From an uncultured virus (IMG/VR IMGVR_UViG_2731957961_000002) (Duplodnaviria > Heunggongvirae > Uroviricota > Caudoviricetes), in the IMG/VR virus record IMGVR_UViG_2731957961_000002: a DNA stretch of 64,000 bases, one strand, 5' to 3'. Each line of letters starts with the position of its first letter. The stretch's first letter is position 1. The notes under the pieces were generated by a model that did not search any database, was not told the DNA's origin, and was given only the letters and a program-made list of their open reading frames with translations. The position numbers were made by a program, and so were the translations under genes. Shown here in pieces: positions 30,081-51,591 of this stretch.

Positions 30081-31499
30081 ATGAACACCCACATCCGCAA
30101 GGGTGTCTTCCTGACCAAGGAAGCCCCGGCCGACAAGGCGGCTGCCGATGCCGCACTCGAAGTGCTGACCAAGGAACTCGGCGATATCGTCACCGCGCTG
30201 GAAACCAACCGTAAGGAGACCGACGCGCACTACACCGAGCTGTCCAACCACTACAAGGGCATGAAGGCCGACAACGAGGCGACCCGTGCCGAAGTCGCCA
30301 AGCATGCGGCGGAGTACGCCCAACTGGTCACCCAGCAGCAGGCGTTGCAGCAGGCGCTCGATCAGGTCAAAAAGGAGATCGATGTCCCGCTGCTGCGCAG
30401 CGGCGGCGACCTCAAGGACAACGACACCAAGGCGGCCATCGAGCTGCAGCGCCGCGCCTACCTGTTCAAGGGTGGCGACAATGACGACTTCGTGCCCGAC
30501 ATGGAGAACCTGGTCAACGCCGCGCATTACCGCTCGGCGGTGCGCAAGCTGATGAAAGTCGGCATCGAGAGCAAGGCCAAGATCGTCCGCACCTTCGACG
30601 AATATGAGCGCAAGGCGTTCGATGCGGCGAGCCTCGACTCCGCGATGTTCTCGCCGGAGATGCTCGGCATCGAGGTCAACTGCATCGTCGAGTGTGCGGA
30701 GCTGCTCGATCTCTACGGCAGCGTGACGGTCGGCAAATCGACCTTCATGTATCCCCAGGTGATGAATTACGGCGCCATCGGCAAGTACGACTGCGACGCC
30801 AAGTGCGACGCTGAATACGGTCCGGAAGGCAATGTTCAGTTCAAGAACGGCGCGGTGTCGGACTTCCGCGGCGTGTTCTGCCTGCAGCGCAAGGTGCTCG
30901 CGGAGGCCAACTATCCGTTGCTCGACTTCATGTATAACGCGGCTTCGCGGTCGTATCGCATCAACCGCAACCGCGCGCTGATGGTCGGCGATGGCATCAA
31001 CGAGCCGCTCGGCTGGTTGTCGTCGGACTGCTTCACCAAGCTGAAGACCGGCGGTACCACGTTCAACCACATCGACTTCCGGCTGTTCTTCGCTTCGGCG
31101 CCGGTCGAGTATGGCGCGGTGACCGCGGTGATGCACCAGAACATGTTCGCCTATCTGGCGGCCATGGTCGATGCCAACGGGCGCTTCATCTTCGGCGACG
31201 GTCTGATGACCTACTCGCCGGACGATGTCCGCGAGCGGATCCGGATCTCGAACTGCCTGCCGGATGCCACCGCGGGTCTGACCAAGGGCAGCGCGGCCAA
31301 CCCGTTCACCACGGGCGACTTCCTGGTCGCGGTCGGCTCATGGGCGCAGGCCTACTACTTGGTCAACAAGCGCGGCTTGTGGATCGAGCAGTGGGAGGGC
31401 CAGTCCTCGGCCTGGTGCGTCAAGTACCAGTTCGGCGCCGAAGACGGCGGCTTCACCGGCTGCTGCCCCGCGGCGCGCATCCTGACGGTCGGCCCGTAA
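30081..31499 (+). CDS. Major capsid protein (HK97 fold, Cys-rich)
   Basis: Coiled-coil delta domain; GDGINEPLG; 10 Cys counted. Confidence 0.9.
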   Translation: MNTHIRKGVFLTKEAPADKAAADAALEVLTKELGDIVTALETNRKETDAHYTELSNHYKGMKADNEATRAEVAKHAAEYAQLVTQQQALQQALDQVKKEIDVPLLRSGGDLKDNDTKAAIELQRRAYLFKGGDNDDFVPDMENLVNAAHYRSAVRKLMKVGIESKAKIVRTFDEYERKAFDAASLDSAMFSPEMLGIEVNCIVECAELLDLYGSVTVGKSTFMYPQVMNYGAIGKYDCDAKCDAEYGPEGNVQFKNGAVSDFRGVFCLQRKVLAEANYPLLDFMYNAASRSYRINRNRALMVGDGINEPLGWLSSDCFTKLKTGGTTFNHIDFRLFFASAPVEYGAVTAVMHQNMFAYLAAMVDANGRFIFGDGLMTYSPDDVRERIRISNCLPDATAGLTKGSAANPFTTGDFLVAVGSWAQAYYLVNKRGLWIEQWEGQSSAWCVKYQFGAEDGGFTGCCPAARILTVGP

Positions 31500-31533
31500 G
31501 ACCGACAGCCCTCACACATCACAGGAGACAACC

Positions 31534-31935
31534 ATGAACATCAACACTGCGACCCAGCATCAGGGGGTGATCGCGTGGGATGGCGCTGCCAGCTATCCCA
31601 TCGACATCCGCCAGCACGTAAGCTTCTCCTTCACCTTCAAGGCCACGGCCGATCTTCCGGTCGATGCGGTGTTTCATGTGCAGGCCGCGCCGCCCAACTC
31701 AGCCGACCCCTGCACGCCCGGCGCCTTTGTCGACGTGCCGGAGGTGCTGACCTGCGTGGCGCCGTATGGCGCGGCCGGGGCCACCCAGTCCGGCTTCACC
31801 ATTCCGGCCGGCACCAAGAAAGGCTCGATCTGCACGGCGACTTTGCCGTGCAGGCCGGACGCCTTCATTCAATTGGTGGCGACTGCTGGTGGCGCCGCTG
31901 TCGAGGCAGTGGCTGTTCTGTCCGGCCCGCGGTGA
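31534..31935 (+). CDS. Minor capsid/decoration protein
   Basis: Directly follows MCP; beta-rich with several Cys. Confidence 0.65.
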   Translation: MNINTATQHQGVIAWDGAASYPIDIRQHVSFSFTFKATADLPVDAVFHVQAAPPNSADPCTPGAFVDVPEVLTCVAPYGAAGATQSGFTIPAGTKKGSICTATLPCRPDAFIQLVATAGGAAVEAVAVLSGPR

Positions 31936-32339
31936 GAGTAGCCGTCGGTCGAGCGATCAGGGTTGGCCCTGGCGACCAGGTCGTCGTTCGGGGCCAGCTC
32001 GCAGCCGCCAAACTCGGGCGGCTGTATGTGTTCGCGTGTGAGCGGGGCAACGATCATTTCTCGCCCTACGTTCCCGACATGTCATCTCTGGTCGGGTCCG
32101 AGCCGAAGCTGCTCTCGACCATGGCGCTGCGGCTCACTGAAGATCGTCCCGAGCGTGAGATCAGTTTCGTCTCCGACATAGACGGCTTCGTTCGCATCAT
32201 GCAGGAAGTCGACACGGCAAAGGATCCGCGCGCCAAGGTCAAGCTGACGCGAACGATCTGCCCGGATCTGCCATGGCCCGAGCGCATGCTTCGCCTGATC
32301 ACAGGAATACTGACATGGCCGACGTTGAAGCTCTCGTAA
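31932..32339 (+). CDS. Hypothetical head-region protein
   Basis: GTGA coupling. Confidence 0.55.
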   Translation: MRVAVGRAIRVGPGDQVVVRGQLAAAKLGRLYVFACERGNDHFSPYVPDMSSLVGSEPKLLSTMALRLTEDRPEREISFVSDIDGFVRIMQEVDTAKDPRAKVKLTRTICPDLPWPERMLRLITGILTWPTLKLS

Positions 32340-32713: not shown

Positions 32714-32714
32714 G

Positions 32715-32813
32715 ATGATCACGGTCAGGTGCTCGAACGCTTGCACGCCGAACAACGCGACGGCGCTCGCGACGCCGCCATGCTTCCAGTGTCCGGCCGC
32801 GGCCGCCCCCTAG
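32715..32813 (+). CDS. 32-aa Cys-rich capsid-linker-like peptide (not in ORF track)
   Basis: MITVRCSNACTPNNATALATPPCFQCPAAAAP with AAGGGAG RBS. Confidence 0.7.
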   Translation: MITVRCSNACTPNNATALATPPCFQCPAAAAP

Positions 32814-32839
32814 CCCCGCCGCGGTTGATGCTGGGTGAA

Positions 32840-32877: not shown

Positions 32878-32895
32878 AGACGGAGGATCGCAGCC

Positions 32896-33606
32896 ATGAT
32901 GCATTTCAACATCGATGACTTTCAGCCGATCAATAACGGCTGCCAGAAGTGCTGCTGCGAGAAGCTGTCGCTGGAGCCGGGAACGACCAGCAAGGTCAGC
33001 GTCGGTTATGCGACCTGGGCGATTCCGATTGGCCAGCTGCATTGTCTGCCGCAATTCTCGCTGGAGCAGATGAATACCTGTCCGGTGCCGGCCAGTGGCA
33101 ACATGCCGCCGCGGCCCAACGACAACATGATCCGGTTCGATACGCCCGTCGATACCGAACTTGCCGACGATCTAAACGGCGAGGTCACAGATCCCGAAGG
33201 CGATGCTCTGACGTTCAAGCTGCTGTCGCTGTACGGTCCGCAGCATGGCAAGCTGATACTCGATCCCGGCGGCACGTTCACCTATACGCCGAACAGCGGC
33301 TATAAGGGCGGCGAGCGGTTTTTTGTATCGGTCGCCGACGGCGTCAATTCGCCGGTCGTGATGGAAGTCTTCATCGGCGTCGGTGTCGCATCCGCGGATG
33401 CCGACGTAACCCCGCATGTCTCGATTGATCAGGCCGGCGTCGTCGTCGATCAGCGATATTTCACCGCCGCCTTTCCGATCAAGGTTTCGCCGGCCGCGCA
33501 GCTTTGCGAGGTGTGGCGGCTCACGGTGCTGCAGGGCGCGCTCGATTGCGACTGTACCTGCTATTCGCGCACCGACTGTTTCGACATCGGGATCGGCAAA
33601 TGCTGA
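32896..33606 (+). CDS. Ig/cadherin-like Cys-rich virion protein (collar-sheath-like)
   Basis: DPEGDALTF..PQHGKL..GTFTYTPNSGYKG; GCQKCCC and DCDCTC. Confidence 0.75.
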   Translation: MMHFNIDDFQPINNGCQKCCCEKLSLEPGTTSKVSVGYATWAIPIGQLHCLPQFSLEQMNTCPVPASGNMPPRPNDNMIRFDTPVDTELADDLNGEVTDPEGDALTFKLLSLYGPQHGKLILDPGGTFTYTPNSGYKGGERFFVSVADGVNSPVVMEVFIGVGVASADADVTPHVSIDQAGVVVDQRYFTAAFPIKVSPAAQLCEVWRLTVLQGALDCDCTCYSRTDCFDIGIGKC

Positions 33607-34307
33607 CGGCCACGACCGGCGAACGGCATTACGACCCGAGGCAGCCACCGTTCGAACCGGATCGGCTGGAGAGGTTCGAGTGGCACAAGGGCCTGTCCCT
33701 CGACATGATCCGCCTGCACACCAAGACCGATGACGTGCCAGGGGTGACCGACGAGCAGTTGGAGCTGTATCGGGCGTCCTCGATTGAGGCTGCCGAGTTC
33801 TATACCGGCATGCTGCTGGCCGGGCAGCGTACCGTGGTTGAGCCGGTCCAGGGTCCGCCCTCGCGGCCCGGAAAGCTGACCTACAGGATGCGGCTGCGCT
33901 ACCCGGTCGCCGACGGCATGGTCTACCTCTATGGCGGCAGCCATCCCGCCGACAACGTCGTGTTCCAGGTGCCGCCCAACACGCGCTCGATCCGGGTGCC
34001 GATCCGCAGCGGTCTGATTGACCTAACGAACTGCTGCGATCCCTGTGCCTCGCACGCGCTCAACCGCGGCATGATGGTGGCCTACAAGGCCGGTTTCCGC
34101 TGCATGGAGGACGTGCCGGCGGGCATCGTCGTCGGTTGCCTGCAATACATCGCCTGGATCATCGAACACCCCGGTGACGAGCTGATGACCCAGCGCAACC
34201 GCAAGGACAATTCGACCAAGATCGGCGGCGTGTCCGGCTCGAACAACATCGCCATGGTTTCCGGCGCGCTGGAATCCTGGCGCCTCTACGACAGCGAAGC
34301 GATCTGA
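33600..34307 (+). CDS. Head-tail connector (neck 1)
   Basis: AAEFYTG..YKAGF..VPAGI..QYIAW; position. Confidence 0.75.
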   Translation: MLTATTGERHYDPRQPPFEPDRLERFEWHKGLSLDMIRLHTKTDDVPGVTDEQLELYRASSIEAAEFYTGMLLAGQRTVVEPVQGPPSRPGKLTYRMRLRYPVADGMVYLYGGSHPADNVVFQVPPNTRSIRVPIRSGLIDLTNCCDPCASHALNRGMMVAYKAGFRCMEDVPAGIVVGCLQYIAWIIEHPGDELMTQRNRKDNSTKIGGVSGSNNIAMVSGALESWRLYDSEAI

Positions 34308-34723
34308 TGCCGCTCGACACCAAGATCTCCGACCTGCGCAACCGGATCTCGCTCTGCACCATGCAGGATGTGGTCGAGGAGGGCGGTGTCATGACCTTGG
34401 CGCGCATCGAAATCGCCACCGTGTGGGCCGCGATCTACGCGCAGCCGCACCTGCCATCGTTCATTTCGCCCTACGGCTACGCCATCAAGGAGAATGCCGA
34501 CCGCCGGACCCATCTGATCACGGTGCGCTACAAGGTCGATCTCGACCTCACTTCGGCGGCCTGGGTCTACGAGGTCCGGCGCAAGTCGCCGCCGCGCTGG
34601 TACAAGGTGCTCGGCTTCTACGACAACGAGAACTGGATCGTGATGCATTGCCATCTGGTCCAACGCTCGGAGCGCGCGACGCCGCCGCAAAGCAAGCTGG
34701 CGGCGGAAGTCTCCCGGATCTGA
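34307..34723 (+). CDS. Head closure/neck 2 protein
   Basis: DLRNRISL..ATVWAAI..THLITVRY. Confidence 0.8.
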   Translation: MPLDTKISDLRNRISLCTMQDVVEEGGVMTLARIEIATVWAAIYAQPHLPSFISPYGYAIKENADRRTHLITVRYKVDLDLTSAAWVYEVRRKSPPRWYKVLGFYDNENWIVMHCHLVQRSERATPPQSKLAAEVSRI

Positions 34724-34726: not shown

Positions 34727-35089
34727 GTGAACATCCAGTTCTCGTTCGTGCCGTGGCGACCGTTTTATGCCCGCAAGAACGACGCCGAAATCAAGAGTTG
34801 GCTGCAGCGCGTGGCGAAGGCGTCGGAAGCCGCCTTCAAGGGCGGCATGGGCAATTATCCGCCGGCATCGGCGCCGGGCGCCTGGCCCAACATCCGGACC
34901 GGCAATCTGCGCGGCTCGATCCGTACCGTGGTGACCAACGATTCCATGACCATCGGCAGCAACATGCATTACTCGCGCTGGCTACGGGAGGGCACTTCAA
35001 AGATGGTCCGCCGCAAGATGAGCGATAACGCGCTGAAGGCCGGCATGAGCGCCGGCCGGCTCGGACACTGGGTCGAGTGGTCGCGGTGA
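34727..35089 (+). CDS. HK97 gp10-like tail-completion protein
   Basis: ASAPGAWP..RTGNLRGSI..LREGTSKM. Confidence 0.75.
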   Translation: MNIQFSFVPWRPFYARKNDAEIKSWLQRVAKASEAAFKGGMGNYPPASAPGAWPNIRTGNLRGSIRTVVTNDSMTIGSNMHYSRWLREGTSKMVRRKMSDNALKAGMSAGRLGHWVEWSR

Positions 35090-35094
35090 CACCA

Positions 35095-35685
35095 ATGGAC
35101 GCGCGAACGCCCGCCCAGGAAAAGCGGTTTCTGCCGGCGGCGGCCGAAGCCATTGCGCAATGGTTCTATCCCGAGCTGGAGAATCCGAACGGTCCGCCGC
35201 GCTCGGTCGCGGTCAGCGACATCGACATCACCAAGGAAAACATCCCGACCTTGCCGCTGGTGCTGGTGGCATTCACGCAATCGCTCGGTCATCAGCTGAT
35301 GCGCAGCTCCAGTTCGGAATTCGAGATCACCGATACCTTCGTGGTCGAGTTCTGGATGCCGCCGCAGCGGGTTCAGCACAAGAACAAGGATACGCCGTAC
35401 TGGAATTATTATCCCTATGAGTACATCCGCGACACGCTGATCGCCGGCTTCGTCAATTGGGAAGGCCCACGCGGCGAGCGCGTCGCCTATCGTGGCCTTC
35501 ATGTCGAGGCGGATCCGCTGGCGGCACGATTGACCTTCACCTTCGTGGCCACGTTCCAGTGGTGTGTCGACAGCCTCGATATGGGCACCCCGTTCGATGT
35601 CGGTTTCAGGCTGTGTACGCCGGCCAGCTGTATCCCTGACTGCACTGAGGAGCAGGAGGTCGACGAATGTCAGCCGTGTCCGTGA
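35095..35685 (+). CDS. Tail terminator-like protein
   Basis: Position before sheath; Cys-rich C-terminus. Confidence 0.6.
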   Translation: MDARTPAQEKRFLPAAAEAIAQWFYPELENPNGPPRSVAVSDIDITKENIPTLPLVLVAFTQSLGHQLMRSSSSEFEITDTFVVEFWMPPQRVQHKNKDTPYWNYYPYEYIRDTLIAGFVNWEGPRGERVAYRGLHVEADPLAARLTFTFVATFQWCVDSLDMGTPFDVGFRLCTPASCIPDCTEEQEVDECQPCP

Positions 35686-35952: not shown

Positions 35953-37473
35953 ATGTCAATTGATAGCCTGCGGTCCGGCGCCATCCGGATTTGCTTCGAT
36001 GCTTCGCTGAACGCCTACCCCCATAAGTGCCGCATCCTGCTCGAAGGCCAGATGCTCGACGACGGCACGGCAGCGGATGGCGAGCTGATCCAGATCCCGT
36101 CGCTGCGCGATGTGGATGAGTTGTTCGGAGCGGGGTCGGTGATTGCCGAAGGACTCAAGGTCGGATTCGGCTGTTGCCCGAACAATGCCCTGGAGTTCTT
36201 TGCGTTGCCGCACAAGGATTTGTCGGTGGGCGCAACGACCAAGGCGGTCTATACGCTGACCTTCACCGGGCCAGCGACCTCCGACGGCCGGGCCGATTTG
36301 TTCATGGGTGACGGTCGCTGGAATACCTCGACCCGCATCACCGAGGGAATGACGGCAGACGAGATCGCGGCAGCTGTCACGCAGTCCATCAATCTGGAGG
36401 CCGGTTTCCCGTTCGATGCGGTGGCGGCTCTCGGCGTCATCACGCTGACGGCAAAGAACGCCGGCACGGTCGGCAACTGCCTCAATCCGATCTACAACTG
36501 GCATCAGCGCCGCGACTATGCGCCGGAGGGCGTGTCGGTAGAGGCCCTCCAGACCATCGTCGGCGCTTCTAGCGCGGCATGGGCACCGCCGGACTATGCG
36601 GCCATTCTTGGCGAGTGCTGCTATTGCTGCATCGGCATGCTCTATGACGATCCGAAGTGCCAGGACGCGATGATCGCCTACATCGCCACCGCCTGGTCCT
36701 GCGACAAGCCGCAGTGCTTCGGTCACGGCTACACGTATAACACCGGCTCGCTGGGGCAGATCCTTTCCACCGACACCAACTCGGCTGAAGCCAGCCGGCT
36801 GGCGCAGTGCTGCGAGGATCCGATTCTCGGCTATCTCAAGGTCGCAGCCTATACAGCGCTGTCGTGCTGCTCGGCGGTCGACAATCCGGAGATGTCGATC
36901 CAGGGTCCGAACTTCGGCGTACTGTCGTGCCTGCGTCAGCCAGAATCGTGTTTCCAGTGCTTCACCTTCGAGGAGCAGCAGCTGCTGGAGTCCACCGGGT
37001 TTGTTGTCACCGTGCCATTGCAGGGCGGCACGGGTGCGATGACCCAGCCGATGATCGTCAACGACATCACCAACAATCGTTACGACGAGAACGGCCGGGT
37101 CAATGCCACGTGGTGGAACGTCAACAGCCGCAGGCTTGCTGCGGCCACGGCGGACGCCGCGGCGATTGCGCTGAACCAGGTGGTCGGCCTTGGCCTGTTC
37201 ACCAAGAACACCACGATCCCGGCCGGCATTCGCGGGACCAACCCGAAGCTTATCCTCGGCATGTTCCGTGCCTGGGCCAAGGCGAATATCGGCATCCTGT
37301 TCTCTGAGTTCGAGAACATCGATCAGGACATCCAGCTCAAGACCGACTTTGAGGTGGCGCCGAAGTGCCAGGGCATCCCCGGCAAGCTCTGGATCGACTT
37401 CGTCTATCGGCCGCCGGTCCGCATCACCAACATCATCATCAACGCGCAGCCGGCAATGCTCAGCAACTGCTGA
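35953..37473 (+). CDS. Tail sheath protein (Mu gpL-like, Cys-rich)
   Basis: ELFGAGS, ITLTAKNAGTVGN; 21 Cys counted including CCYCC. Confidence 0.9.
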   Translation: MSIDSLRSGAIRICFDASLNAYPHKCRILLEGQMLDDGTAADGELIQIPSLRDVDELFGAGSVIAEGLKVGFGCCPNNALEFFALPHKDLSVGATTKAVYTLTFTGPATSDGRADLFMGDGRWNTSTRITEGMTADEIAAAVTQSINLEAGFPFDAVAALGVITLTAKNAGTVGNCLNPIYNWHQRRDYAPEGVSVEALQTIVGASSAAWAPPDYAAILGECCYCCIGMLYDDPKCQDAMIAYIATAWSCDKPQCFGHGYTYNTGSLGQILSTDTNSAEASRLAQCCEDPILGYLKVAAYTALSCCSAVDNPEMSIQGPNFGVLSCLRQPESCFQCFTFEEQQLLESTGFVVTVPLQGGTGAMTQPMIVNDITNNRYDENGRVNATWWNVNSRRLAAATADAAAIALNQVVGLGLFTKNTTIPAGIRGTNPKLILGMFRAWAKANIGILFSEFENIDQDIQLKTDFEVAPKCQGIPGKLWIDFVYRPPVRITNIIINAQPAMLSNC

Positions 37474-37512
37474 GCCGGCCGCCCTCAATCACCTTATCGA
37501 GGAGTGACGCAC

Positions 37513-37650: not shown

Positions 37651-37682
37651 CCACCCCCAGGAGGAGAAAGGAGTAATTCGAT

Positions 37683-42881: not shown

Positions 42882-44206
42882 AGCCGGTTGTCATTATCGT
42901 CGGTGGTTCAGCGCTGGAGAACTGGACCGAAATGACCTTGCAGCGAAGCAAGGATGAGCTGACCGGATCTCTCACAGTTTCGATCTTTGCCGGCGCCATG
43001 CCGCCGACACCGATCAACCGGTCGGCGATGGCGGGTGCCCAGATCCAGGTCTACATCGCCGGTCAGCTGGCGTTCACCGGCACGGTCGACAAGCGCACGG
43101 GGACCGGGGACAAGAAAGGCAAGGAAGGTACCGACGACAATCAGGAGACTCACGGCGAGTCTTCGATGTCGGTGTCGATTGGACCGAATGAATACACCGT
43201 CAAGCTGACGGCGCGCGGCAAGACCAAGCGACTGATCGATTCATCGCATCAGCACCCCACGACGAACATGCTCAAGCCAACCACCAAGAAGGTGGTCGAG
43301 AAGCTGATCGAGCCATGGAAGACGCAGCTCGAATGGAAGGGGGAGGACATCAAGCTGGATAAGGTGCGTTTCCGCGATGGCGCACGTGTCGTGGACGAGC
43401 TTCACCGGGTCGCGATGGAGAACTGCTACTTTATGTATGAGACCCGCGATGGGAAGCTGCGAGTTACTGACGGTGTTGGTTCTGATTCTGGCGGCGGCGG
43501 CGATCCTCTCATACTGGGGCAGAACATTCTGAGTTTTTCGGCCGAGCAGTCCGAGGACGAAGCCAAGTCGAAGATCAAGGTCAAGGGCCAACGCACCGAG
43601 AAAGACAAATGGGGCGAGGAGGCGCTGCTGAAGACCTTCAAGGAGGTGAAGGACTCCTGGGTCAAGGATTTTGTACCGCTGACGGTCCAGCACTACGGCG
43701 ATGCCGATGATAAGACGCTTGAACGTCGGGCTCGGTTCGAAGCCAACAAGCACAGCGCCGAAAGTAAGAAGATCACCATTGAGGTGTTCCACGTTCAGAC
43801 GCCGTCGGGGCAGCCGTGGGACATCGGCAATACGCATTATGTCGAGGTGCCGCCGGAAGGCATCTTTGACGTGTTCGAGTGCACCGAACTGACCTACACG
43901 GTCGACGCCGACAAGACGCTGAAGACAACGCTGGTGTTGTCGCCGCCGCCATCGGGCGGGGCCGGCGTAGGCGGTGGCGGGTTCGGTCTCGGCAGCCTGC
44001 CGATGACCATGGGTAACGCCAGGCGCAGCCAGGCCAAAGTCACCCTTACCGCGGGCGAGTACCCGGCACCGTGGTCGCCGCCGATGCTGGCGGAGCTGCC
44101 GCTGATGACGCTGGTCGAGGCCTTGGCCAAGCCGCAGCCCGAGGAAGACAAGAAAGAAAAGTCGCCGCCGATGACCCTGCCACCCTGGTTCGGAGAAATC
44201 GTATGA
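42878..44206 (+). CDS. Mu gp44-like baseplate hub
   Basis: LIDSS, LILGQNILS, QPWDIG. Confidence 0.85.
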   Translation: MKPVVIIVGGSALENWTEMTLQRSKDELTGSLTVSIFAGAMPPTPINRSAMAGAQIQVYIAGQLAFTGTVDKRTGTGDKKGKEGTDDNQETHGESSMSVSIGPNEYTVKLTARGKTKRLIDSSHQHPTTNMLKPTTKKVVEKLIEPWKTQLEWKGEDIKLDKVRFRDGARVVDELHRVAMENCYFMYETRDGKLRVTDGVGSDSGGGGDPLILGQNILSFSAEQSEDEAKSKIKVKGQRTEKDKWGEEALLKTFKEVKDSWVKDFVPLTVQHYGDADDKTLERRARFEANKHSAESKKITIEVFHVQTPSGQPWDIGNTHYVEVPPEGIFDVFECTELTYTVDADKTLKTTLVLSPPPSGGAGVGGGGFGLGSLPMTMGNARRSQAKVTLTAGEYPAPWSPPMLAELPLMTLVEALAKPQPEEDKKEKSPPMTLPPWFGEIV

Positions 44207-44805
44207 GCTACACGCGCTTTCGCGAGCGATCCCGTGACGTGCAAGACGGCCTGGAGCGCCATGTCTGGGGCAAGCAGAAATACACGGGCAAAGGCTCGAT
44301 CATCAAGGTGCGCGGGACCGACACCGAGGACCAGGAAGCTGCGGTTCTCGTCATTGGCGGCGTGTCGTTCAACGTCAAGGAGAAGTTCAACACTGAGGTG
44401 ATGCTGCTGGCGTCATCATCCGACACCAATCTCAAGATGGCGCTTCTGACCATCCCAAAGGACAAGCAGCGACGCTGGATGGAGGGTGACGGCGGCGTGC
44501 AGCACCCGACCGATGGCGATTTTGCGCTCGATTTCTCCGACAAGCTCGCACACCTGACCAAGAACAAGTTCGGTGTCGGCGAGGATGGTGAGTTCGAAGT
44601 CCGCGGCAAGGAGGGCTATTTCCGCGTCAAGAAACTGATTGTCGACGGCGAACTGATCGTCAACACGCGTGTCAAGACGCCGGAAGTGGTATCGGGCAGC
44701 GAGAAGCCGCCGAAGTTCGAGGGCAACAAGCAAGCCGAGATCGAGAAGGACGATGAGGGCGGCGCCGGTGGCGCTGGTACCGCGCAGCTCACCATGGATT
44801 TCTGA
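44203..44805 (+). CDS. Baseplate central spike (gp45-like)
   Basis: Position after hub; beta-rich C-terminus. Confidence 0.6.
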   Translation: MSYTRFRERSRDVQDGLERHVWGKQKYTGKGSIIKVRGTDTEDQEAAVLVIGGVSFNVKEKFNTEVMLLASSSDTNLKMALLTIPKDKQRRWMEGDGGVQHPTDGDFALDFSDKLAHLTKNKFGVGEDGEFEVRGKEGYFRVKKLIVDGELIVNTRVKTPEVVSGSEKPPKFEGNKQAEIEKDDEGGAGGAGTAQLTMDF

Positions 44806-44807: not shown

Positions 44808-45359
44808 ATGGCGGTCAGCGATCCCTGCCTTGATCAGAACGCCGGTCGGCGCCGGATCTTCTGGACTACGCGTGCCAGCGCATGCGGCAGCTATGTCATG
44901 TGCGGCGTCGAATGTGAGATTCGCGGTCTCGAATACCAGGAAGTCGAGGAGCCGGAAGGCGGGCGCACGATCCGGAATGACGAGTGGCTTCGCGGCCTGA
45001 TCCTGAACATTCTCAACACACGGGCGCGGACCGACCTGCGTTGCCCGACGCCGGCAGCGGTGTATGGTCACTGGTCGGAATCCTTCCGCAAGGACGGACT
45101 CTACATTGGATCTCGGGTGTGGAACGTGGCGGCCAAGCCTTACGTGCGGGTCGCTGACGCAGTCAAGGCGATCAAGGCCGCCGTCGTTGCCGACATGGCG
45201 AAGCTGACGGTCATGAATCTGGCCGATAGCGTTGAAGTGGAGGCCGATTATCGCGGGCGCAATCGAGTTGATGTCGTCATCACCGCGGTCACGCGAAAGG
45301 CCAGTCACGTTCTCAACCTGTCCGGCACCTATTCCTCAGATAGCTGGGTCTGGCAGTGA
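44808..45359 (+). CDS. Mu gp46-like baseplate wedge/sheath initiator
   Basis: GHWSESF..IGSRVW. Confidence 0.75.
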   Translation: MAVSDPCLDQNAGRRRIFWTTRASACGSYVMCGVECEIRGLEYQEVEEPEGGRTIRNDEWLRGLILNILNTRARTDLRCPTPAAVYGHWSESFRKDGLYIGSRVWNVAAKPYVRVADAVKAIKAAVVADMAKLTVMNLADSVEVEADYRGRNRVDVVITAVTRKASHVLNLSGTYSSDSWVWQ

Positions 45360-45371: not shown

Positions 45372-46586
45372 ATGTCATGCATCATCTTGCGACCAGATCC
45401 GAAGGCGCTGTTTGATCAGCTGCAGTCGATGTTTTCGTCGACCGTACTCGGCGGCGGGGTTGTGGTTCCCGAGTCGAATGAATGGTACGTCCTGGCAAAC
45501 GACTACGCGATGGCCGAGCAGTTCTATGCCATCGCCGACCAGATGTGGCGGGAGGCGGATCCGGCGCTCGCCTGCTGCGACAATCTCTACAAGATGGCGG
45601 CGCAGCATGGGGTCTTTCCGCGGCCGGCGTCGCATGCGGAGGGCTATGCCAAGCTGACGGGAACGCCGGGCACTCCGGTGCCGTCGTCGCTGGAGATCTC
45701 GACCAGCCAAGGCATCTATGTGTCGGTCGGGACCGTGCCGCTGACGATCCCGGATTCAGGCGAGATCATCATTCGGGTCCGCGCGCTGACTCCCGGACCG
45801 GAATTCAATTCTGCCGGCACGGTCACGACGGGCACGCTGACGACATCCGCGCCGGGCATCAGCGACGATGTCGAGATCTGTGGCCGGCAGTTCTGCGGCG
45901 GCGCGGCGGCTGAGACCTGCGAACAGTTTCGCAAGCGCTACCTGGAGCGACTGGCCTACCAGCCGCGAGCAACGATGGCCTGGATCAAGCAGAAGCTGCT
46001 GGAGTTTCCGTGCGCGACCCGCGTCTGCGTTCGTGAGGGCGCCTGCTGCCGCTGCACGCCGGAATGCACCGACTGCGCCGATTGCGGCTGCAAGAACTGC
46101 GGCACCAGGATGGAGTTCTACGTGCTGTTCAATCGCGTGTTTCCGTGCGGGATCCCGCCGCAGAACGTCGTCGCCGATATCCAGACCTGGCTGTTCGGTG
46201 AGCATCAAGGTTACGGCGAGGGTCAAGTCGAAATGGGCGTGTGCGGGCAGATCTACGCGCCCAAGCCGCTGATGGTGAATGTCTATATCGATATCGTCGG
46301 CTGCCCATCATCCTCGCAGAAGCAGATCATCAGCGATCAGGTGCGGGCGTTGTTCGAGCGGATCTGTCCGTCGGTGCCGCTCCGAACGCGGCAAGTCGAA
46401 CTGATCGTATCGTCCGTCGTCGGGGCAGAGGTCAACGTCGCTGTACGGTTTGAAGTGCTGCCACCGGTCGACAACAGCATGGTGTTTCAAGCGGCATGCG
46501 GCGACCTTGAACCGGAATGCGATTACTTGCCGTGCTTGAACACGATTTCGTTCACCGGGCCTGACATCAGGGGTGCGCAGTGCTGA
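45372..46586 (+). CDS. Baseplate J/gp47-like wedge protein (Cys-rich)
   Basis: GGAAAETCEQFRKRYL; CCRCTPECTDCADCGCKNC insert. Confidence 0.9.
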   Translation: MSCIILRPDPKALFDQLQSMFSSTVLGGGVVVPESNEWYVLANDYAMAEQFYAIADQMWREADPALACCDNLYKMAAQHGVFPRPASHAEGYAKLTGTPGTPVPSSLEISTSQGIYVSVGTVPLTIPDSGEIIIRVRALTPGPEFNSAGTVTTGTLTTSAPGISDDVEICGRQFCGGAAAETCEQFRKRYLERLAYQPRATMAWIKQKLLEFPCATRVCVREGACCRCTPECTDCADCGCKNCGTRMEFYVLFNRVFPCGIPPQNVVADIQTWLFGEHQGYGEGQVEMGVCGQIYAPKPLMVNVYIDIVGCPSSSQKQIISDQVRALFERICPSVPLRTRQVELIVSSVVGAEVNVAVRFEVLPPVDNSMVFQAACGDLEPECDYLPCLNTISFTGPDIRGAQC

Positions 46587-47560
46587 GCGCCGATGGCTGT
46601 GTCGACGTCCTGGTCCCGGACGACGTCAGCTGTTGCCCGCCGCCGCTGTGCGGCAATGACCTTTGCTGCACGTTCGTGGCCTTTTTTCAGCTGCTGCCAT
46701 CGGGACCGTTGTGGGATTACTGGAAACAGGCGGCGATCAGCTATTTCCAGCGTTCTGACGACCCGGCGGAGTGTCCGCTGCTCAACGACCCGCAATGCCC
46801 GTCGCTGATCCTGCATGCGATCTATACCGTGCTCAAGCTGCGCGGCGTCGTGCACGGCGCGCTGTGGCCGGCGCTGCGCGAGAGCAATCCGTACACCGCG
46901 GTGACGACGCTGGATTATCACCTGGAGCGGCTGCAGTGGGAAAATTGCTACGCCTCACAGTGCCGCTCGATGGCGCTTGGCCCGCTGTCGCCGCTGGAGG
47001 TGATGGGCGTCTGCGGGCCGGTCTATTGTGAGCCGCCGTTTCCGCCCGAGCTGGTGGCGGCACTCAAGCGTGGTATCGCGATCTCGCTGACTCGCGCCAA
47101 CATGGGCGTGATCAAGAACCTGTGCGGCATCAACTGGGTGATTGAACCGCTCGGCGCCGAGATCATGCCGATCTATGCTTCCCCGTTGCCGGATCCGTGT
47201 CCGCCGGATCCGCCGCCGGAAGGCTGTGAGCCCAACCCGCCGGAAGACGTCGACCTGACGTGCCTGGAGACAGACTGCGATCCATTCGATTGTGAGTCGG
47301 CGAAGCAATTCTATCTCTGTCAGTCGCGCGATTGGCTGCAGGGTGTCGGCACGGGCGATGTCTGCGAAAGCAACGTACCGATCCGTGTTCCGGCGTGGTT
47401 TGAGTGGCCTTGCTACACCGACAAGGTCGCGGGCATGCCCGACATCATCTGGCCTGGTGTGCTCGCGGCCGAGTGCATCATTCGCTCGCTGCTGCCGTGT
47501 TCTGGCGCCGGCATCACCATCACCCGCTGCTGTGAAATCGGAGAGGAAGCCCCATCATGA
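46580..47560 (+). CDS. gp48/DUF2313-like wedge protein (Cys-rich)
   Basis: FQLLPSGPLWD; ESNPYTA. Confidence 0.75.
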   Translation: MLSADGCVDVLVPDDVSCCPPPLCGNDLCCTFVAFFQLLPSGPLWDYWKQAAISYFQRSDDPAECPLLNDPQCPSLILHAIYTVLKLRGVVHGALWPALRESNPYTAVTTLDYHLERLQWENCYASQCRSMALGPLSPLEVMGVCGPVYCEPPFPPELVAALKRGIAISLTRANMGVIKNLCGINWVIEPLGAEIMPIYASPLPDPCPPDPPPEGCEPNPPEDVDLTCLETDCDPFDCESAKQFYLCQSRDWLQGVGTGDVCESNVPIRVPAWFEWPCYTDKVAGMPDIIWPGVLAAECIIRSLLPCSGAGITITRCCEIGEEAPS

Positions 47561-48057
47561 GCGGCGTGTTTCCTGATGAAGTAACCGGCGGCGTCATCAT
47601 CCGCGACGATCTCGGCAATCCGACTAACCCGCCTGATGTCCAGAACGCCTACACGCCAGCCCCCGGTTTCGTGACCAGCTGCGAGATGACGGCGAGTCCG
47701 TCCAACTGCAACGGACGGATCACGCCGGCCCAGATCAACGCCATCGTCTCCGAGCTGGTCGCGTTGGCCGAGTGCCTCGATCCGGACGGTCCGTGGAATT
47801 GCACCGCCGTCACCAACCTCTGCGCCGCGTTCACGGCGTGGTCGGCGACGCATGGCGGCCTGCACGTCGGCGAGGATCCGCCGGATCCGGTGCTCAACCC
47901 GTTCTGGTACGAGAGCGACACCGGAATCCTCTACGTCTTTTTCGACGACACGTGGGTGCAGGCCAACGGCGCGGTGGCCGATCAGGTCTCGATCATCGGT
48001 ACCGGCGTCGCCGGCCGGCCGCTGCAGGTCGGCGTGATCGATAGCGGGGTGTACTGA
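47557..48057 (+). CDS. Baseplate/fibre adaptor protein
   Basis: QINAIVSEL..NLCAA anchor; FWYESDTGILYV..WVQ module. Confidence 0.6.
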   Translation: MSGVFPDEVTGGVIIRDDLGNPTNPPDVQNAYTPAPGFVTSCEMTASPSNCNGRITPAQINAIVSELVALAECLDPDGPWNCTAVTNLCAAFTAWSATHGGLHVGEDPPDPVLNPFWYESDTGILYVFFDDTWVQANGAVADQVSIIGTGVAGRPLQVGVIDSGVY

Positions 48058-48058
48058 A

Positions 48059-49747
48059 ATGGCAGCGATTGACTTCCCGGCCGCACCGGCCCCCGGCGAC
48101 GAGCACACCCAGAACGGCATCACCTACACGTGGACCGGCTCGGCGTGGGTGATCAACGAATTCCCGGCGCTGCCGCTGCCCGCGCCTGTCATGCAGCAGA
48201 AGCGCACCTCGACCAACAACAACCCGCCAACGGGGCTGCTGCCGGGTCAGCTCGCGGTCGAGATGGGCACGCCGCTGCGGCTGTGGGTCGGCGTGCCGAC
48301 CGGCCTCGATCCTAGCGGCAAGAAGTTGCTGGCCGATTCTGGTCTCGACCCGTATGTGAACATCACGGGCGACACGATGACCGGTGACCTTGTCATCCAG
48401 AAAGTCACGCCCGGTGTCGCCCTCGACAAACCGGCTTCCGGCTCGATGTCGGTGGTCACCGGCAAGATGGCTGGCAATCTGCGCTGGCTGGTCGCATATG
48501 GCAACGCCACGGCGGAAGCTGGCGGCAACACTGGCTCGGATTTCGAGGTCGCACGCTACACCGATGCGGGCGCTTACATCGATAGCCCGTTGGTCATCAA
48601 GCGCGACACTGGTCTCGCGGTAGTCAAGGGACCACCAACGGAAGCCGGAGGCATTGCCACCAAAGCCTACGTCGATGCGGCCGGCGTTGGCGCGGTGCCA
48701 ATGTATACGCGCGGCCACGAAAACATCTTCATCAACGGCGACATGAGCGTGTCGCAGGAACTTGGTGATCTGAGCACCGGCAACATCGTCAGCACCGGGG
48801 CCAAGTACGCCTGCGATCTGTGGTGGATCAACCAGCAAAACGCGAGTGCGGGCGTCGTGGCCGGACAGCGGTTCGGCGTGCCCTATGGCGGCCCCAGCGC
48901 GAACATTCCGCTGGCGCTCCGGATCAATTGCAATCTGGCTGGCAACTGGAACGCTACCGCGACCGATTTCATGGTCTTTCTCCAGTTCATCGAAGGCAAC
49001 CGCATGGCCAAATTGAACTACGGCTCGGGTGCCCCGATCACCAGCACCATCTCGTTCTGGGCGCGAGCATCGGTGGCCGGCACCGGCACCTTCTCGATAC
49101 GCAATTCGGCGATTACCCGTTGCTTCCTGCATGACTTCACCATCGCGGCTCCGAATGTCTGGCAATACTTCTCGTTCGTGGTGCCCGGTTGCATCGATGC
49201 CGTGTGGAACATGAATGCTCTTCTCGGGGCTTATGCCGCTTGGTGCTTCGGAGCCGGAACCAACTTCAGGCATGTGACGCAGGATGCGTGGATCGACGTC
49301 TCCAGCATCGGGCAGAAGTTCGCCAGCAACGCCATCTCAAATTTCTTCGGCACCGTCAACAACACCGTCGATATCACCGGGTTGATGTGGCTGCCCGGCG
49401 ATACGCCGCCGACCGCCGCGCAGAATGTGCTGATGTTCAAGGGTCCCGCGCACGAGATGCCTTTGGTGCAGCGTTATTTCCGGCAGCACAAGTGGAGCGT
49501 CGAGGGATACACCAACGGGGCTCAAACTCGCGTCACCTGCAATCACGGCATTATCCAGATGCGACAAGCACCAACTGTCACGCGAGTGACCACCGGCACG
49601 CACGCCAACATTCGCGGCGGTGATCCGACCACCTTTGTGTCGTGCTCCGGCGTTGATGCCGCCAGCATCGTAACGAATATCGAAAGCAATGCGGCTGGCT
49701 ATACGCAGGCGAATGGCTTTGTCGATAATCTGAGTGCGAGGTACTGA
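48059..49747 (+). CDS. Tail fibre protein
   Basis: FPAAP..YTWTG.AW, GDTMTGDL, ATKAYVD, NIFINGDM.VSQ, LVQRYF. Confidence 0.85.
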   Translation: MAAIDFPAAPAPGDEHTQNGITYTWTGSAWVINEFPALPLPAPVMQQKRTSTNNNPPTGLLPGQLAVEMGTPLRLWVGVPTGLDPSGKKLLADSGLDPYVNITGDTMTGDLVIQKVTPGVALDKPASGSMSVVTGKMAGNLRWLVAYGNATAEAGGNTGSDFEVARYTDAGAYIDSPLVIKRDTGLAVVKGPPTEAGGIATKAYVDAAGVGAVPMYTRGHENIFINGDMSVSQELGDLSTGNIVSTGAKYACDLWWINQQNASAGVVAGQRFGVPYGGPSANIPLALRINCNLAGNWNATATDFMVFLQFIEGNRMAKLNYGSGAPITSTISFWARASVAGTGTFSIRNSAITRCFLHDFTIAAPNVWQYFSFVVPGCIDAVWNMNALLGAYAAWCFGAGTNFRHVTQDAWIDVSSIGQKFASNAISNFFGTVNNTVDITGLMWLPGDTPPTAAQNVLMFKGPAHEMPLVQRYFRQHKWSVEGYTNGAQTRVTCNHGIIQMRQAPTVTRVTTGTHANIRGGDPTTFVSCSGVDAASIVTNIESNAAGYTQANGFVDNLSARY

Positions 49748-49749
49748 GC

Positions 49750-50205
49750 ATGGCCGATTACCGCTTGCGTAACCTCAATGGTCTGGCCTACGTGCAGCAT
49801 GTGCCGACCACCACCCTCATTCCACTGTTCGTGCCCGATTACGACGTGCGCGAGTTTGTGGAGTATCAGGCGTGGCTGGCGGCGGGCAATACGCCTGATC
49901 CCGACTTTCCCAGCCTCGATCCGACCGTGCCGCCCGTTCTCGACAGGCGGCAATTCTGGATGCGACTCGCCCTGATGGGCAAGATCAACGAACAGGCCGC
50001 CATGAACGCCATGGAAGGTGACATTCCCGATGTCATCGAGACGTTCATCCTGACGCTGTCGGCCGGTGATCAGTTCATGGCCCGGATGTTTTTCAAGGGG
50101 GATCGATTCGAGCGCGTGCACGCCTTGCAGGCGCATACCAAAGCGGGTCTCGCGTTCAACGACGCGCAGCTCGATCAGTTCTTCCGCGATGCATTTCTTC
50201 TGTAA
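49750..50205 (+). CDS. Tail fibre-associated/assembly protein
   Basis: EYQAWLAAGNTP; RRQF..AL..QLDQFF. Confidence 0.7.
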   Translation: MADYRLRNLNGLAYVQHVPTTTLIPLFVPDYDVREFVEYQAWLAAGNTPDPDFPSLDPTVPPVLDRRQFWMRLALMGKINEQAAMNAMEGDIPDVIETFILTLSAGDQFMARMFFKGDRFERVHALQAHTKAGLAFNDAQLDQFFRDAFLL

Positions 50206-50220
50206 GGGAGGCCGTAGGCC

Positions 50221-51591
50221 ATGACTGGCATGTTTCCTTCTAGCGGCGTCCCGGCCACGGATGCCCACAACACCATCCTCGACCCCAACACCGTCAACTG
50301 CGATGATCTCTGGTACTCGACGACGCGGTGCCAGCCGCGCTTCGACCCGGCGGCTGCCAATGCCACGCTGTCGGAACTGATCAATCTGGTCAACTGCGCC
50401 GGCATTCCCTATGACTGCACCAAGTTCGACAACCTCTGTCGCGCGGTCAGGTACCTCACCAAGATGTACTGCGCGCCGCTGACCGGCGGACCGGCGGCCT
50501 ATGGTGCCGTGTTTGACCCGCCGCTGCTGGAGCTGCCGGACGATTGCTGCACACATTTCACGGTGATACCGAACGTCGAGAACAACGGCGCGGTGACCAT
50601 CAATCTGCACCCGGTGCTGCGCAACGATCTGCAAGAGTTGCGGCCGGGCGACTTCACCGCCGGCATTCCCATCGAGCTGATCTGGTGTAACGGCAAGTTC
50701 GTCGTGCCGTACATGGTCCGGTCGCAGACTCCGGTCGAATTCAAGGGCCAGCTCGACTACTGGGTCCGCCCCGACGGCAGCGATGCGACCGGCGATGGCA
50801 CCGCCAACTCGCCGAGCAAGGCGTTCCGCACCATCAACTACGCTTTCCAGACCGCGATGAGCCGTTACGTTCGGTCGCCGGAAATGATCCTCAACATCCG
50901 GCTCGGCATCCCCGGCGACTACGAGGGTGCGCGCATCTACAAGTTTCCCGGCATCATCAACATCATCGGCGACATCGTCGCTCCGGCCGGCTATCGCATT
51001 CACTGCTCGACCGGGGCCGATGGTGGCGTCTGCATCTTCGCCGAAGGCTCCACGGTCCACACGCGCGGCGTCAACCTGATCCTCGATGCGCAGAGTACCC
51101 TGACCGGCACCGGGCCGATTGGCGTCTTTGCCTATCGCAATGCGGTCATGAGTTTCAGCCACGGCCGCGCTGAGCTGAACATCAACGGCCACGCCATCTC
51201 CTCCGGGTTCTTCGAGAGTGGTGGCGGCGTGCTGCACATCTCCGAGGGCAGCGTGGTGGTCGATGGCAAGGGCCGCCAAATCGCCCATGGCATGGGCTCA
51301 CAGGCCAATGCGGGCTTCACCGGCTGCACTGGCGCGGTGACGCCCAACCAGCTGACCATCACGTGGATCAACTGCAACTTCATCGTTGCAGCGTATTGGG
51401 CCTACGCGCTGGCCGGTGTCGGCGTCTCCAACGACGTCATCTCAGGCGTCCCCGTGGTGACCGTGGTCGATAGCGGTTGCGTGGGTCCGGAGTACAACGC
51501 CACCGTCAACGCCTTCGTCTACGGTGGCGGCAAGGTCATCCCCGGTGCCACCGCTGGCTCGGTCGGCAGCGGCGGCGTCTTCCAACCCTGA
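50221..51591 (+). CDS. Tail spike/second receptor-binding protein
   Basis: N-terminal NATLSELIN..NLCRAV anchor; YWVRPDGSD..G..AFRTI followed by beta-helix-like body. Confidence 0.75.
   Translation: MTGMFPSSGVPATDAHNTILDPNTVNCDDLWYSTTRCQPRFDPAAANATLSELINLVNCAGIPYDCTKFDNLCRAVRYLTKMYCAPLTGGPAAYGAVFDPPLLELPDDCCTHFTVIPNVENNGAVTINLHPVLRNDLQELRPGDFTAGIPIELIWCNGKFVVPYMVRSQTPVEFKGQLDYWVRPDGSDATGDGTANSPSKAFRTINYAFQTAMSRYVRSPEMILNIRLGIPGDYEGARIYKFPGIINIIGDIVAPAGYRIHCSTGADGGVCIFAEGSTVHTRGVNLILDAQSTLTGTGPIGVFAYRNAVMSFSHGRAELNINGHAISSGFFESGGGVLHISEGSVVVDGKGRQIAHGMGSQANAGFTGCTGAVTPNQLTITWINCNFIVAAYWAYALAGVGVSNDVISGVPVVTVVDSGCVGPEYNATVNAFVYGGGKVIPGATAGSVGSGGVFQP

Follow-up and report, generated by a model that had tools for sequence, protein, structure and literature searches.

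The virion of Agrobacterium phage Milano contains disulfide bonds, and in excerpts of the two structure papers most of the mapped ones join different subunits (PMC10811340, PMC10491603). The same excerpts suggest that the disulfide network and the collar correlate with the Agrobacterium host (PMC10811340, PMC10491603), and term counts over both papers gave no mention of prophages, lysogeny, or temperate relatives. Phage 7-7-1, to which the 9HZ and 9RK entries of the Protein Data Bank (PDB) belong, was called lytic and flagellotropic in an excerpt of its own structure paper (PMC12796354). The DNA analyzed here is a stretch of 64,000 nucleotides (hereafter the window) from an uncultured virus of the class Caudoviricetes (IMG/VR record IMGVR_UViG_2731957961_000002). 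An original prediction, made from its letters alone, had placed in it an integrating phage with the disulfide-rich architecture of Milano, and had described both Milano and 7-7-1 as lytic and flagellum-dependent; this description agrees with the wording used for 7-7-1, and the Milano record annotates no integrase. As described below, the window very probably belongs to a prophage of about 74.9 kb inserted at the 3' end of a tRNA-Lys(CTT) gene, in which a virion module orthologous to that of Milano and 7-7-1, and presumably giving rise to a crosslinked virion, is combined with a different backbone of the temperate type. The evidence in hand lies at the level of the sequence and comprises the integration anatomy, homology, synteny, conserved cysteine positions, and a complete colinear viral genome. 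New in comparison with Milano are the temperate backbone, the probable new host family, the absence of one functionally important bond, and the predicted presence of extra bonds, whereas the covalent build would be the same.

Homology of the virion module to Milano and 7-7-1

Protein families were assigned with Pfam and PHROGs, matches to solved structures were obtained with phmmer against the PDB, and the genes were compared one by one with blastp. Besides Milano, the comparison included Synechococcus phage Yong-L2-223 and G802, the IMG/VR contig behind locus L018, which is a complete, colinear viral genome of 74,997 bp with a 127-bp terminal repeat and a tyrosine integrase. Pfam and PHROGs recognized a set consisting of terminase, portal, S78 protease, HK97-type capsid, head and tail completion proteins, sheath, tube, and chaperone, together with the Mu-type baseplate genes DNA_circ_N, gp44-like hub, gp46, and baseplate J. 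Gene for gene, positions 25817–47560 of the window followed the order of Milano gp4–gp30, with amino acid identities of 26–50%. The virion gene set and order, from the CPCC protein and terL to the gp25–gp30 baseplate and including the N-terminal anchor of STF, were the same as those in Milano, 7-7-1, and OLIVR4 (genus Schmittlotzvirus).

The matches to solved structures were in good agreement with this synteny. The sheath matched PDB entries 8fop and 8fwm (Milano gp20; E = 8.6e-147) and 9hz7 (7-7-1; E = 1.7e-141), and the major capsid protein (MCP) matched 8fwg (Milano gp9; E = 1.7e-153) and 9hz8 (7-7-1; E = 8.1e-155). For the collar protein, the corresponding entries were 8fwc (Milano gp13; E = 3.4e-27) and 9rkt (7-7-1; E = 3.8e-32), and the wedge proteins BW2 and BW3 matched gp29 (E = 1.8e-104) and gp30 (E = 6e-51), respectively, both in the Milano entry 8fqc. 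The Milano-type architecture put forward in the original prediction was thus borne out by strong homology combined with a gene order shared from the terminase to the baseplate.

Conservation of the disulfide-forming cysteines of Milano

The disulfides of Milano were taken from Table 1 of PMC10811340, from Table 2 and the text of PMC10491603, and from the sheath bond C467–C501 mapped by mass spectrometry (MS). Each Milano protein was then aligned with its counterparts in the window and in Yong-L2-223 (15 proteins, overall identity 21–50%). As many as 58 of the 66 disulfide cysteines of Milano were kept as Cys in the window, and 56 of the 66 in Yong-L2-223. When all Milano cysteines in the 15 aligned proteins were considered, 85 of 103 aligned to window cysteines. 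The positions retained are thus those of bonds that are for the most part inter-subunit in Milano, in keeping with the interface positions expected in the original prediction. Because 58 of the 66 mapped positions are conserved, we infer that the virion of the window phage would be covalently crosslinked as in Milano.

Conservation extended along the entire module, all genes of which, from the one upstream of terL to the last fibre, lie on the plus strand. Directly upstream of terL, a small protein with an invariant TDCPCC motif followed by a hydrophobic helix (25919–26212) has homologues that occupy the equivalent position in Milano (gp4), Yong-L2-223, and G802. The terminase large subunit (26209–27648; PF04466, E = 9.8e-32) is 42% identical to Milano gp6 and 80% identical to that of G802, the portal (27894–29261; PF04860) is 38% identical to gp7, and the prohead protease (29289–30035; PF04586) is 46% identical to gp8. 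The MCP (30081–31499; 472 aa, 10 Cys) keeps all 10 cysteines of the Milano MCP, including the 9/9 engaged in disulfides, and the minor capsid (cement) protein (31534–31935; 4 Cys, 34% identity to gp10) keeps 4/4. A 32-aa ORF (32715–32813) resembling the linking protein LP2 (gp128) shows the pattern C-x3-C...PPCFxC, as do Milano gp128 and the N-terminus of gp16; it adjoins the collar gene on its upstream side, which is the place of gp128 in Milano, and it was found in G802 too. Neither this peptide nor the TDCPCC protein was assigned to a Pfam family, and their Atlas matches, with scores of at most 0.83 and TM values of at most 0.42, gave no lead.

In the neck and tail, the gp13-homologous collar protein (32896–33606; 236 aa, 12 Cys, Big_9 domain), with the motifs CQKCCC and DCDCTC, retains 7/7 disulfide cysteines (C19, C22, C23, C24, C211, C221, and C229). 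Neck 1 (33600–34307), neck 2 (34307–34723), the gp17-like tail completion protein (34727–35089), and the tail terminator (35077–35685; 6 Cys) were assigned from Pfam/PHROGs and from blastp against Milano; neck 1 keeps 2/3 (C136 and C117) and the terminator keeps 1/1 (C156). The tail sheath (35953–37473; 506 aa) contains 21 Cys, with the motifs ECCYCC, QCCED, and SCCS, and keeps 6/8 (C14, C244, C216, C327, C467, and C501 in Milano numbering). The tail tube (37683–38129; 4 Cys), 47% identical to gp21, keeps 4/4 (C3, C19, C43, and C82). The sheath and tube genes are separated by an intergenic gap of about 210 nt (37474–37682), whereas the two genes are 15 nt apart in Milano. The tail assembly chaperone (38140–38927; PF10109, weak) includes an overlapping frameshift-extension ORF (38685–38927); both ORFs have homologues in Yong-L2-223, and a frameshifted chaperone is annotated in the Milano record. 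The tape measure (38934–41681; 915 aa) was recognized by its position and by partial similarity to the tape measures of Milano, Yong-L2-223, and G802.

In the baseplate, the centerpiece (41691–42881; 6 Cys, PF07157), 40% identical to gp25, keeps 2/2 disulfide cysteines (C5 and C318). It is followed by the hub (42878–44206; 2 Cys, PF22255, 47% identity to gp26) and the central spike (44203–44805; 200 aa, PF21683, 33% identity to gp27). Among the wedge proteins, the small BW1 (44808–45359; 5 Cys) keeps 4/6. BW2, which is the baseplate J protein (45372–46586; 404 aa, 24 Cys) and carries the motif CCRCTPECTDCADCGCKNC, keeps 8/8, and BW3 (46580–47560; 326 aa, 25 Cys) keeps 7/7.

The receptor-binding region comprises fibre 1 (47557–48057), fibre or spike 2 (48059–49747), a possible chaperone (49750–50205), and an STF-like fibre with 14 Cys (50221–51591). 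Residues 2–78 of the last of these, constituting the N-terminal anchor, matched Milano STF gp31 (E = 6.7e-6), and 4/7 disulfide cysteines of STF are kept. Only N-terminal anchors in this region resemble gp31, with the equivalent of Cys38 being kept, and the distal parts gave no Milano match, the PDB search with fibre 2 returning no Milano chain. Likewise, Milano TSP gp124 and the garland proteins gp125 and gp127 had no significant match, the best being gp124 with an E of 0.017. Since these distal parts are unrelated to those of Milano, flagellotropism cannot be assumed.

Cysteine enrichment of the virion proteins

Translation of the ORFs in the region reproduced all of the cysteine counts and motifs reported in the original prediction. 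To provide a background, 3903 genome ORFs of at least 200 aa were surveyed, giving a Cys content of 0.84%. The 25 ORFs of the virion module contain 159 Cys in 7535 aa, corresponding to 2.11%. The wedge protein BW3, with 7.7% Cys, ranks above all 3903 genome ORFs, and baseplate J, the collar, and the sheath fall in the top 0.03%, 0.05%, and 0.18%, respectively. The enrichment of the virion module in cysteine is therefore beyond chance.

The tape measure and the central spike have no Cys at all. Long Cys-free proteins are not rare by themselves, since of the 781 genome ORFs with 500 aa or more, 53 have no Cys, but the tape measure lacks Cys in all four of the relatives compared (the window phage, Milano, Yong-L2-223, and G802). 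The original prediction had contrasted Cys-rich outer parts with Cys-free ejected parts. The tape measure and the spike conform to this rule and fit the expectation for parts that must exit the particle, whereas the inner tube and the baseplate centerpiece, which are inner or leaving parts, have four and six Cys and keep conserved disulfide cysteines. The rule is thus partly right.

Cys-rich sheath family and co-variation of cysteines

An exhaustive search among representatives clustered at 50% identity yielded 1008 relatives of the sheath at E ≤ 1e-3, 50 of which reached E ≤ 1e-30. Full-length representatives down to an E of about 1e-25 all have 5–19 Cys, and more distant ones mostly have 0–5. 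The 118 full-length close relatives contain 16–24 Cys each, and a scan of viral contigs retrieved 85 relatives. Cys-rich sheaths form a large, mostly uncultured clade.

Fifty-one diverse Cys-rich sheaths were aligned, and positions are given hereafter in window numbering unless they are attributed to Milano. Two bonds of the Milano sheath are maintained in the contracted state, and the cysteines that form them were nearly invariant: C14 was found in 49, C250 in 47, C222 in 50, and C333 in 50 of the 51 sheaths. Milano C47 and C182 occur together, and do so in just Milano and one representative.

Pairs of positions were further scored by the numbers of sheaths having both cysteines, the first only, the second only, or neither. 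The pairs 75–306 (34/0/0/17) and 286–336 (23/0/0/28) were perfectly concordant, and pairing was also evident for 226–305 (34/0/1/16), 223–255 (40/1/0/10), 74–225 (20/2/0/29), and 176–287 (7/3/0/41). The analysis also recovered the MS-mapped C467–C501 bond of Milano as the pair 472–506 (34/2/1/14), and two control pairs mostly did not change together. On a tree built without the Cys columns, joint changes were apparent, numbering nine each for positions 75 and 306, seven and eight for 226 and 305, and six each for 223 and 255. These co-varying cysteines are predicted to be disulfide partners, which would give the sheath several bonds in addition to those of Milano. Nine Cys of the window sheath are not aligned to any Milano Cys.

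Integration site and extent of the prophage

At the left end of the window, a tyrosine integrase of 384 aa is encoded on the minus strand (1–1155; PF00589, E = 1.8e-9; phrog_1 integrase, E = 3.7e-31). The ORF is open, and the window starts at its stop codon. The integrase gene adjoins a tRNA-Lys(CTT) gene located just outside the window (−413 to −338), the 3' end of which is a 48-nt repeat forming the putative attL (−385 to −338). An exact copy, the putative attR, lies at about 74,513–74,560, also outside the window. The two copies of this direct repeat, at positions 34395 and 109293 of the host contig (C81), delimit an element of about 74.9 kb. Within positions 50,000–64,000 of the window, no att-like repeat matching the tRNA/integrase end was detected, either at 14 nt or at 11 nt and above. 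On the contig (303 kb), tblastn found no integrase paralogue, and Pfam identified this integrase as the sole PF00589 gene. The view that the phage is an integrating one was accordingly upheld by the tyrosine integrase, the adjacent tRNA-Lys gene, and the exact 48-nt att-like repeat. As for the coordinates in the original prediction, those of the virion module held, but the prophage extends beyond them, from −385 to about 74,560.

The whole att-bounded 74.9 kb is taken as the prophage because G802 is colinear with it, including several genes at 55.7–64.2 kb of the window. The virion, packaging, replication, and integrase ORFs examined are all open and match G802 over near-full length, with a high GC content at third codon positions (GC3) throughout. 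The element thus appears to be an intact, integrated temperate myophage.

Downstream of the intact tRNA-Lys(CTT) gene, its 3'-terminal 42–48 nt are repeated five times, at window coordinates 74,516, 98,363, 108,839, 149,414, and 187,985. Four copies are exact and the fifth has one mismatch, and the segments so delimited measure approximately 75, 24, 10.5, 40.6, and 38.6 kb. This arrangement is suggestive of several elements inserted in tandem at one tRNA gene.

Alternative explanations

Several observations weigh against the interpretation of the element as a functional prophage of a Bradyrhizobium host that encodes a crosslinked virion. Eight of the 66 mapped cysteines are lost, namely sheath C47 and C182, neck 1 C120, BW1 C29 and C41, and STF C102, C127, and C144. 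The protein comparisons of the window gave no homologue of Milano LP1 (gp16), and each co-variation sign test is non-significant when taken alone, with fewer than six independent pairs. In addition, the matches of the candidate immunity ORFs, which would correspond to the CI/Cro pair of the original prediction, remain below threshold (HTH_31, E = 0.017; HTH_3, E = 0.031; YdaS_toxin, 22.1 bits against a cut-off of 30), and single N occur in the immunity region at 5815, 5868, 6377, and 6424; a 79-nt run of N lies in the right arm. An IS1-family transposase at about 68.9–69.8 kb in that arm could mark decay, and neither a holin nor spanins were identified among the annotated genes, nor was a small terminase. 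The host genus was derived from the names of homologues rather than from the genome's own label.

Some of these points would be explained if the prophage were cryptic and no longer inducible, with its Milano-like genes being inherited cargo from which the strain makes no crosslinked virions. The lack of a repressor/Cro pair above threshold, the IS1-family transposase amid mixed accessory genes in the right arm, and the sole PF00589 integrase on a contig with five further tRNA-Lys fragments, which suggests an old, reshuffled hotspot, are all compatible with such a state. The open ORFs with their near-full-length G802 matches, the exactness of the att repeat over 48 nt, and the high GC3 throughout the ORFs nevertheless render it unlikely. 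It is still less probable that the prophage ends after the endolysin gene at about 53.3 kb, and that the remaining 21 kb represents a separate, older island at the same tRNA gene that has lost its left att site. The GC content of the arm is indeed lower than that of the core (56.7% vs. 61.2%), the arm holds host-like or mobile genes (CsbD, AraC, IS1, and PIN), a masked N-run (54993–55071) lies in the putative boundary zone, and G802 has no matches for 64.2–74.5 kb. On the other hand, the window genes at 55.75–57.13, 61.56–62.12, 62.70–63.00, and 63.59–64.21 kb have homologues in the equivalent arm of G802, the length of G802 matches the att-to-att distance, and no att-like repeat of 11 nt or more was found within positions 50,000–64,000. 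As regards the cysteines themselves, runs of closely spaced CxC/CxxC, for instance CCRCTPECTDCADCGCKNC in baseplate J, resemble metal-binding motifs, and phage virions assemble in the reducing cytoplasm, so that a role mainly in metal binding or intrachain folding instead of an inter-subunit disulfide network might be envisaged. We regard this as highly improbable, as the conserved positions are those of disulfides in the cryo-EM and MS maps of Milano, and the sheath cysteines are gained and lost in pairs. Moreover, disulfides are reported for the same proteins in excerpts of the Milano papers and the 7-7-1 paper (PMC12796354).

A tailocin or a gene transfer agent was also considered and was ruled out, as the element carries genes for the terminase, portal, and capsid as well as for replication and integration.

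Proposed assembly, infection, and significance

On the preferred reading of an inducible prophage with a Milano-type virion, the tyrosine integrase would integrate the phage into the 3' end of tRNA-Lys(CTT). After induction, the particle would assemble like that of Milano: the HK97-fold capsid would be decorated, a 15-fold collar would encircle the neck, and the tail, a flexible sheath-tube assembly, would sit on a Mu-like baseplate. The capsid protein would be crosslinked to the cement protein and then to the linking peptide, the collar rings to both neck 1 and the sheath, and the tube rings to one another, ring to ring. The sheath mesh would be held by C14–C250 and C222–C333, the wedge proteins would form a bonded network, and the fibres would be bolted to the wedge. 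Such covalent crosslinks would be expected to confer mechanical and thermal robustness. Infection would then require the release of baseplate bonds, for example that between the conserved centerpiece C317 and BW2 C3. That the disulfides form, stabilize the particle, and gate infection, and that the prophage is inducible, are thus predictions from the genes.

One bond of particular functional interest is missing. In the Milano sheath, the C47–C182 bond is broken in the contracted state and must be released for contraction, according to an excerpt of the Milano paper. Both cysteines are replaced in the window, where the aligned residues are Q47 and R186, and both are also absent from Yong-L2-223. 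Given this absence, the sheath itself should not need reduction in order to contract, and any redox lock on contraction should reside in the baseplate only.

A broader scenario is offered tentatively as one possibility among others. Disulfide crosslinking of the virion may be ancestral to a large clade of myophages from soil and water, most of them uncultured, in which the backbone switches between temperate and virulent types. The core mesh, consisting of sheath C14–C250 and C222–C333, the tube rings, and the wedge network, would then be universal, C47–C182 would be a late addition in the Agrobacterium lineage, and infection would be gated by baseplate disulfides alone in phages such as this one. 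More speculatively, the TDCPCC membrane mini-protein, which lies beside terL in all four genomes, might be a thiol-oxidizing factor that enables bonds to form in particles assembled in the cytoplasm; its co-inheritance with the Cys-rich virion module makes it a candidate redox factor.

In the literature searched, no Milano-like phage was described as temperate, and none was described from Bradyrhizobium. The occurrence of Milano-type cysteines in an integrated phage implies that this build is not confined to lytic Agrobacterium phages. As the cysteine network is encoded in a probable Bradyrhizobium prophage, two Synechococcus phages, and dozens of viral contigs, it would be a trait of the clade and not a host-specific oddity. 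A lysogen would offer a genetically tractable source of such particles, in which the prophage cysteines could be mutated before induction. The natural absence of C47–C182, alongside retention of all the other tail bonds, likewise provides a comparison for studying redox control of contraction in the sheath versus the baseplate. For the ecology of rhizobia, the element would represent a further type of temperate myophage, of 75 kb, in Bradyrhizobium.

Relatives, host, and distribution

Milano and the window phage have near-identical per-protein Cys profiles, with no Cys in either tape measure. In contrast, the window phage does not share the DNA polymerase, helicase, primase, and approximately 90 small genes of Milano. 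It is integrated, with att sites at a tRNA gene, and carries an integrase gene beside an excisionase-like one; its early and lysogeny genes are unrelated to those of Milano. It also differs in lacking sheath C47–C182 and an LP1 homologue. Genera are delimited by nucleotide identity in the practice of the International Committee on Taxonomy of Viruses. With virion proteins 26–50% identical and two other ORFs matching Milano, the window phage falls short of genus-level relatedness to Schmittlotzvirus. Judged by its genes, the window phage is not a close relative of Milano and shares with it the virion module alone. The two other ORFs (E ≤ 1e-5) encode an HTH_3 regulator resembling gp85 and a SLOG protein resembling gp57.

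Only six records of isolated phages covered at least 80% of the sheath. The closest isolates were the Synechococcus phages Yong-L2-223 (OM868081) and Ssp-JY38 (PP438428), the sheath, MCP, and tube of which are 58.7%, 64.9%, and 61.8% identical, respectively, to those of the window phage; the sheath identities of Milano, OLIVR4, and 7-7-1 (two records) were 49.2%, 49.0%, and 47.0%, respectively. The virion module of Yong-L2-223 is syntenic with that of the window, with 20 Cys in the sheath, 21 in BW2, 25–27 in BW3 (depending on the start), and none in the tape measure. Both Synechococcus phages, the reported host of which is a cyanobacterium, have DNA polymerase I, a sliding clamp, and queuosine-pathway genes and no annotated integrase, in contrast to the window phage; like it, they are devoid of sheath C47 and C182. 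The records are OM868081.1 and PP438428.1 (loci L005 and L006), the GC content of Yong-L2-223 is 58.6%, and no paper mentioning Yong-L2-223 was found. The disulfide-type architecture of these two phages appears to have gone unremarked so far.

In G802, the sheath, the MCP, and terL are 79%, 76%, and 80% identical, respectively, to those of the window phage, and the Cys profile is the same. The two genomes run in parallel through the left operon, replication genes, virion module, and part of the right arm of the window phage, but G802 has an integrase, an excisionase-like gene, and an immunity region without homology to the window counterparts and contains no tRNA-Lys fragment. Swaps of integrase and immunity genes are usual between related phages with different immunity and attachment sites. 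Judging from these genes, the attachment site and immunity of G802 presumably differ from those of the window phage. Among five near-complete viral contigs bearing the sheath (69.6–75.0 kb), one has a tyrosine integrase and one a family-A DNA polymerase.

Mu-like, SfV-like, and ST64B-like temperate myophages share with the window phage the Mu-type baseplate genes (DNA_circ_N, gp44-like hub, gp46, and baseplate J) and the temperate lifestyle. Their sheaths are distant (26–29% identity), their representatives having mostly 0–5 Cys as opposed to 16–24 in the Cys-rich clade, and no homologues of the collar or cement protein were detected in them.

Regarding the host, the nearest sheaths (75–88% identity) are labelled Bradyrhizobium. 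Three of them, 80–88% identical, are located on contigs of 8.9–9.7 Mb, and one near sheath occurs in Bradyrhizobium sp. Leo170. The genome carrying the prophage has a size of 8.8 Mb and a GC content of 62.5%. The labels of the nearest sheaths suggest that the host is probably Bradyrhizobium, a soil bacterium. Bradyrhizobium belongs to a different family from Agrobacterium, and the different host family anticipated in the original prediction is therefore probable.

Integrated copies are uncommon among the genomes searched. Of two sets of 400 species representatives, the one drawn from other genomes of the genus included a single carrier of the sheath and the one sampled across the class included none; a pattern-based scan of species genomes returned three loci only. 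Among public sequencing runs, a single soil metagenome matched, with a share of 0.08 of the sampled words, and no RNA run was listed. Two further loci carry sheath homologues. One (L009; 49% identity) lies on a 76-kb contig binned as Candidatus Saccharibacteria, which may be a mis-binned phage genome, and the other (L010; 44% identity) lies inside a 577-kb contig of a metagenome-assembled genome labelled Bartonella and may be another integrated relative.

Early, immunity, replication, and right-arm genes

Beside the integrase, a small excisionase-like regulator is encoded on the minus strand (1121–1387) with a weak match to phrog_66 (excisionase and transcriptional regulator; E = 4.2e-5). It is followed by an early leftward operon of small ORFs (1403–5622, minus strand), including a DUF7694 protein (3561–4016), which is colinear with positions 25191–29944 of G802 at 56–76% identity. 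A candidate immunity switch (6146–6929) consists of a leftward HTH ORF (6146–6388), which contains an N, and a rightward Cro/YdaS-like ORF (6582–6929). This low-GC, divergent region is not shared with G802. Six single N occur in the window, at 18083 and 18136 in addition to the four in the immunity region, arranged in pairs 47–53 nt apart; the N-run is at 54993–55071.

The replication/recombination module (7654–17485, plus strand), assigned with Pfam and PHROGs, is colinear with that of G802 and encodes a GcrA-like protein (7654–8361), a nuclease (9447–9875), a Sak4-like annealing protein (10892–11746), a Cas4-domain exonuclease (12919–13815), and a primase/helicase (14290–16332). It gave no Milano match at E ≤ 1e-5, and three of its proteins had weak matches in Yong-L2-223 (22–32% identity). 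An ArdC-like anti-restriction protein is encoded farther downstream (21582–22484, plus strand; PF08401 and PF18818; phrog_7245, E = 4.6e-91).

Past the fibre genes, a YspA/SLOG-domain protein (within the ORF 51477–52157, plus strand; PF10686, E = 1.1e-21) and a GH25 endolysin (52597–53268, plus strand; PF01183, E = 8e-21; phrog_291 endolysin) precede the accessory right arm. This arm, which occupies 53300–64000 and continues to attR, contains CsbD, an HTH_3 regulator, AraC, a DNA invertase, an HTH antitoxin-like protein, and the N-run, with a PIN protein encoded outside the window. At least six genes at 55.7–64.2 kb have G802 homologues, which lie between the fibre and integrase genes of that contig. 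The HTH_3 regulator (within 57452–58153, minus strand; E = 4.5e-13) shares 40% identity with Milano gp85 across 77 aa. The DNA invertase (61559–62119, minus strand) has a homologue in the accessory arm of G802, and so does the HTH antitoxin-like protein (62702–63001, minus strand), which lies beside a 94-aa ORF (62415–62699).

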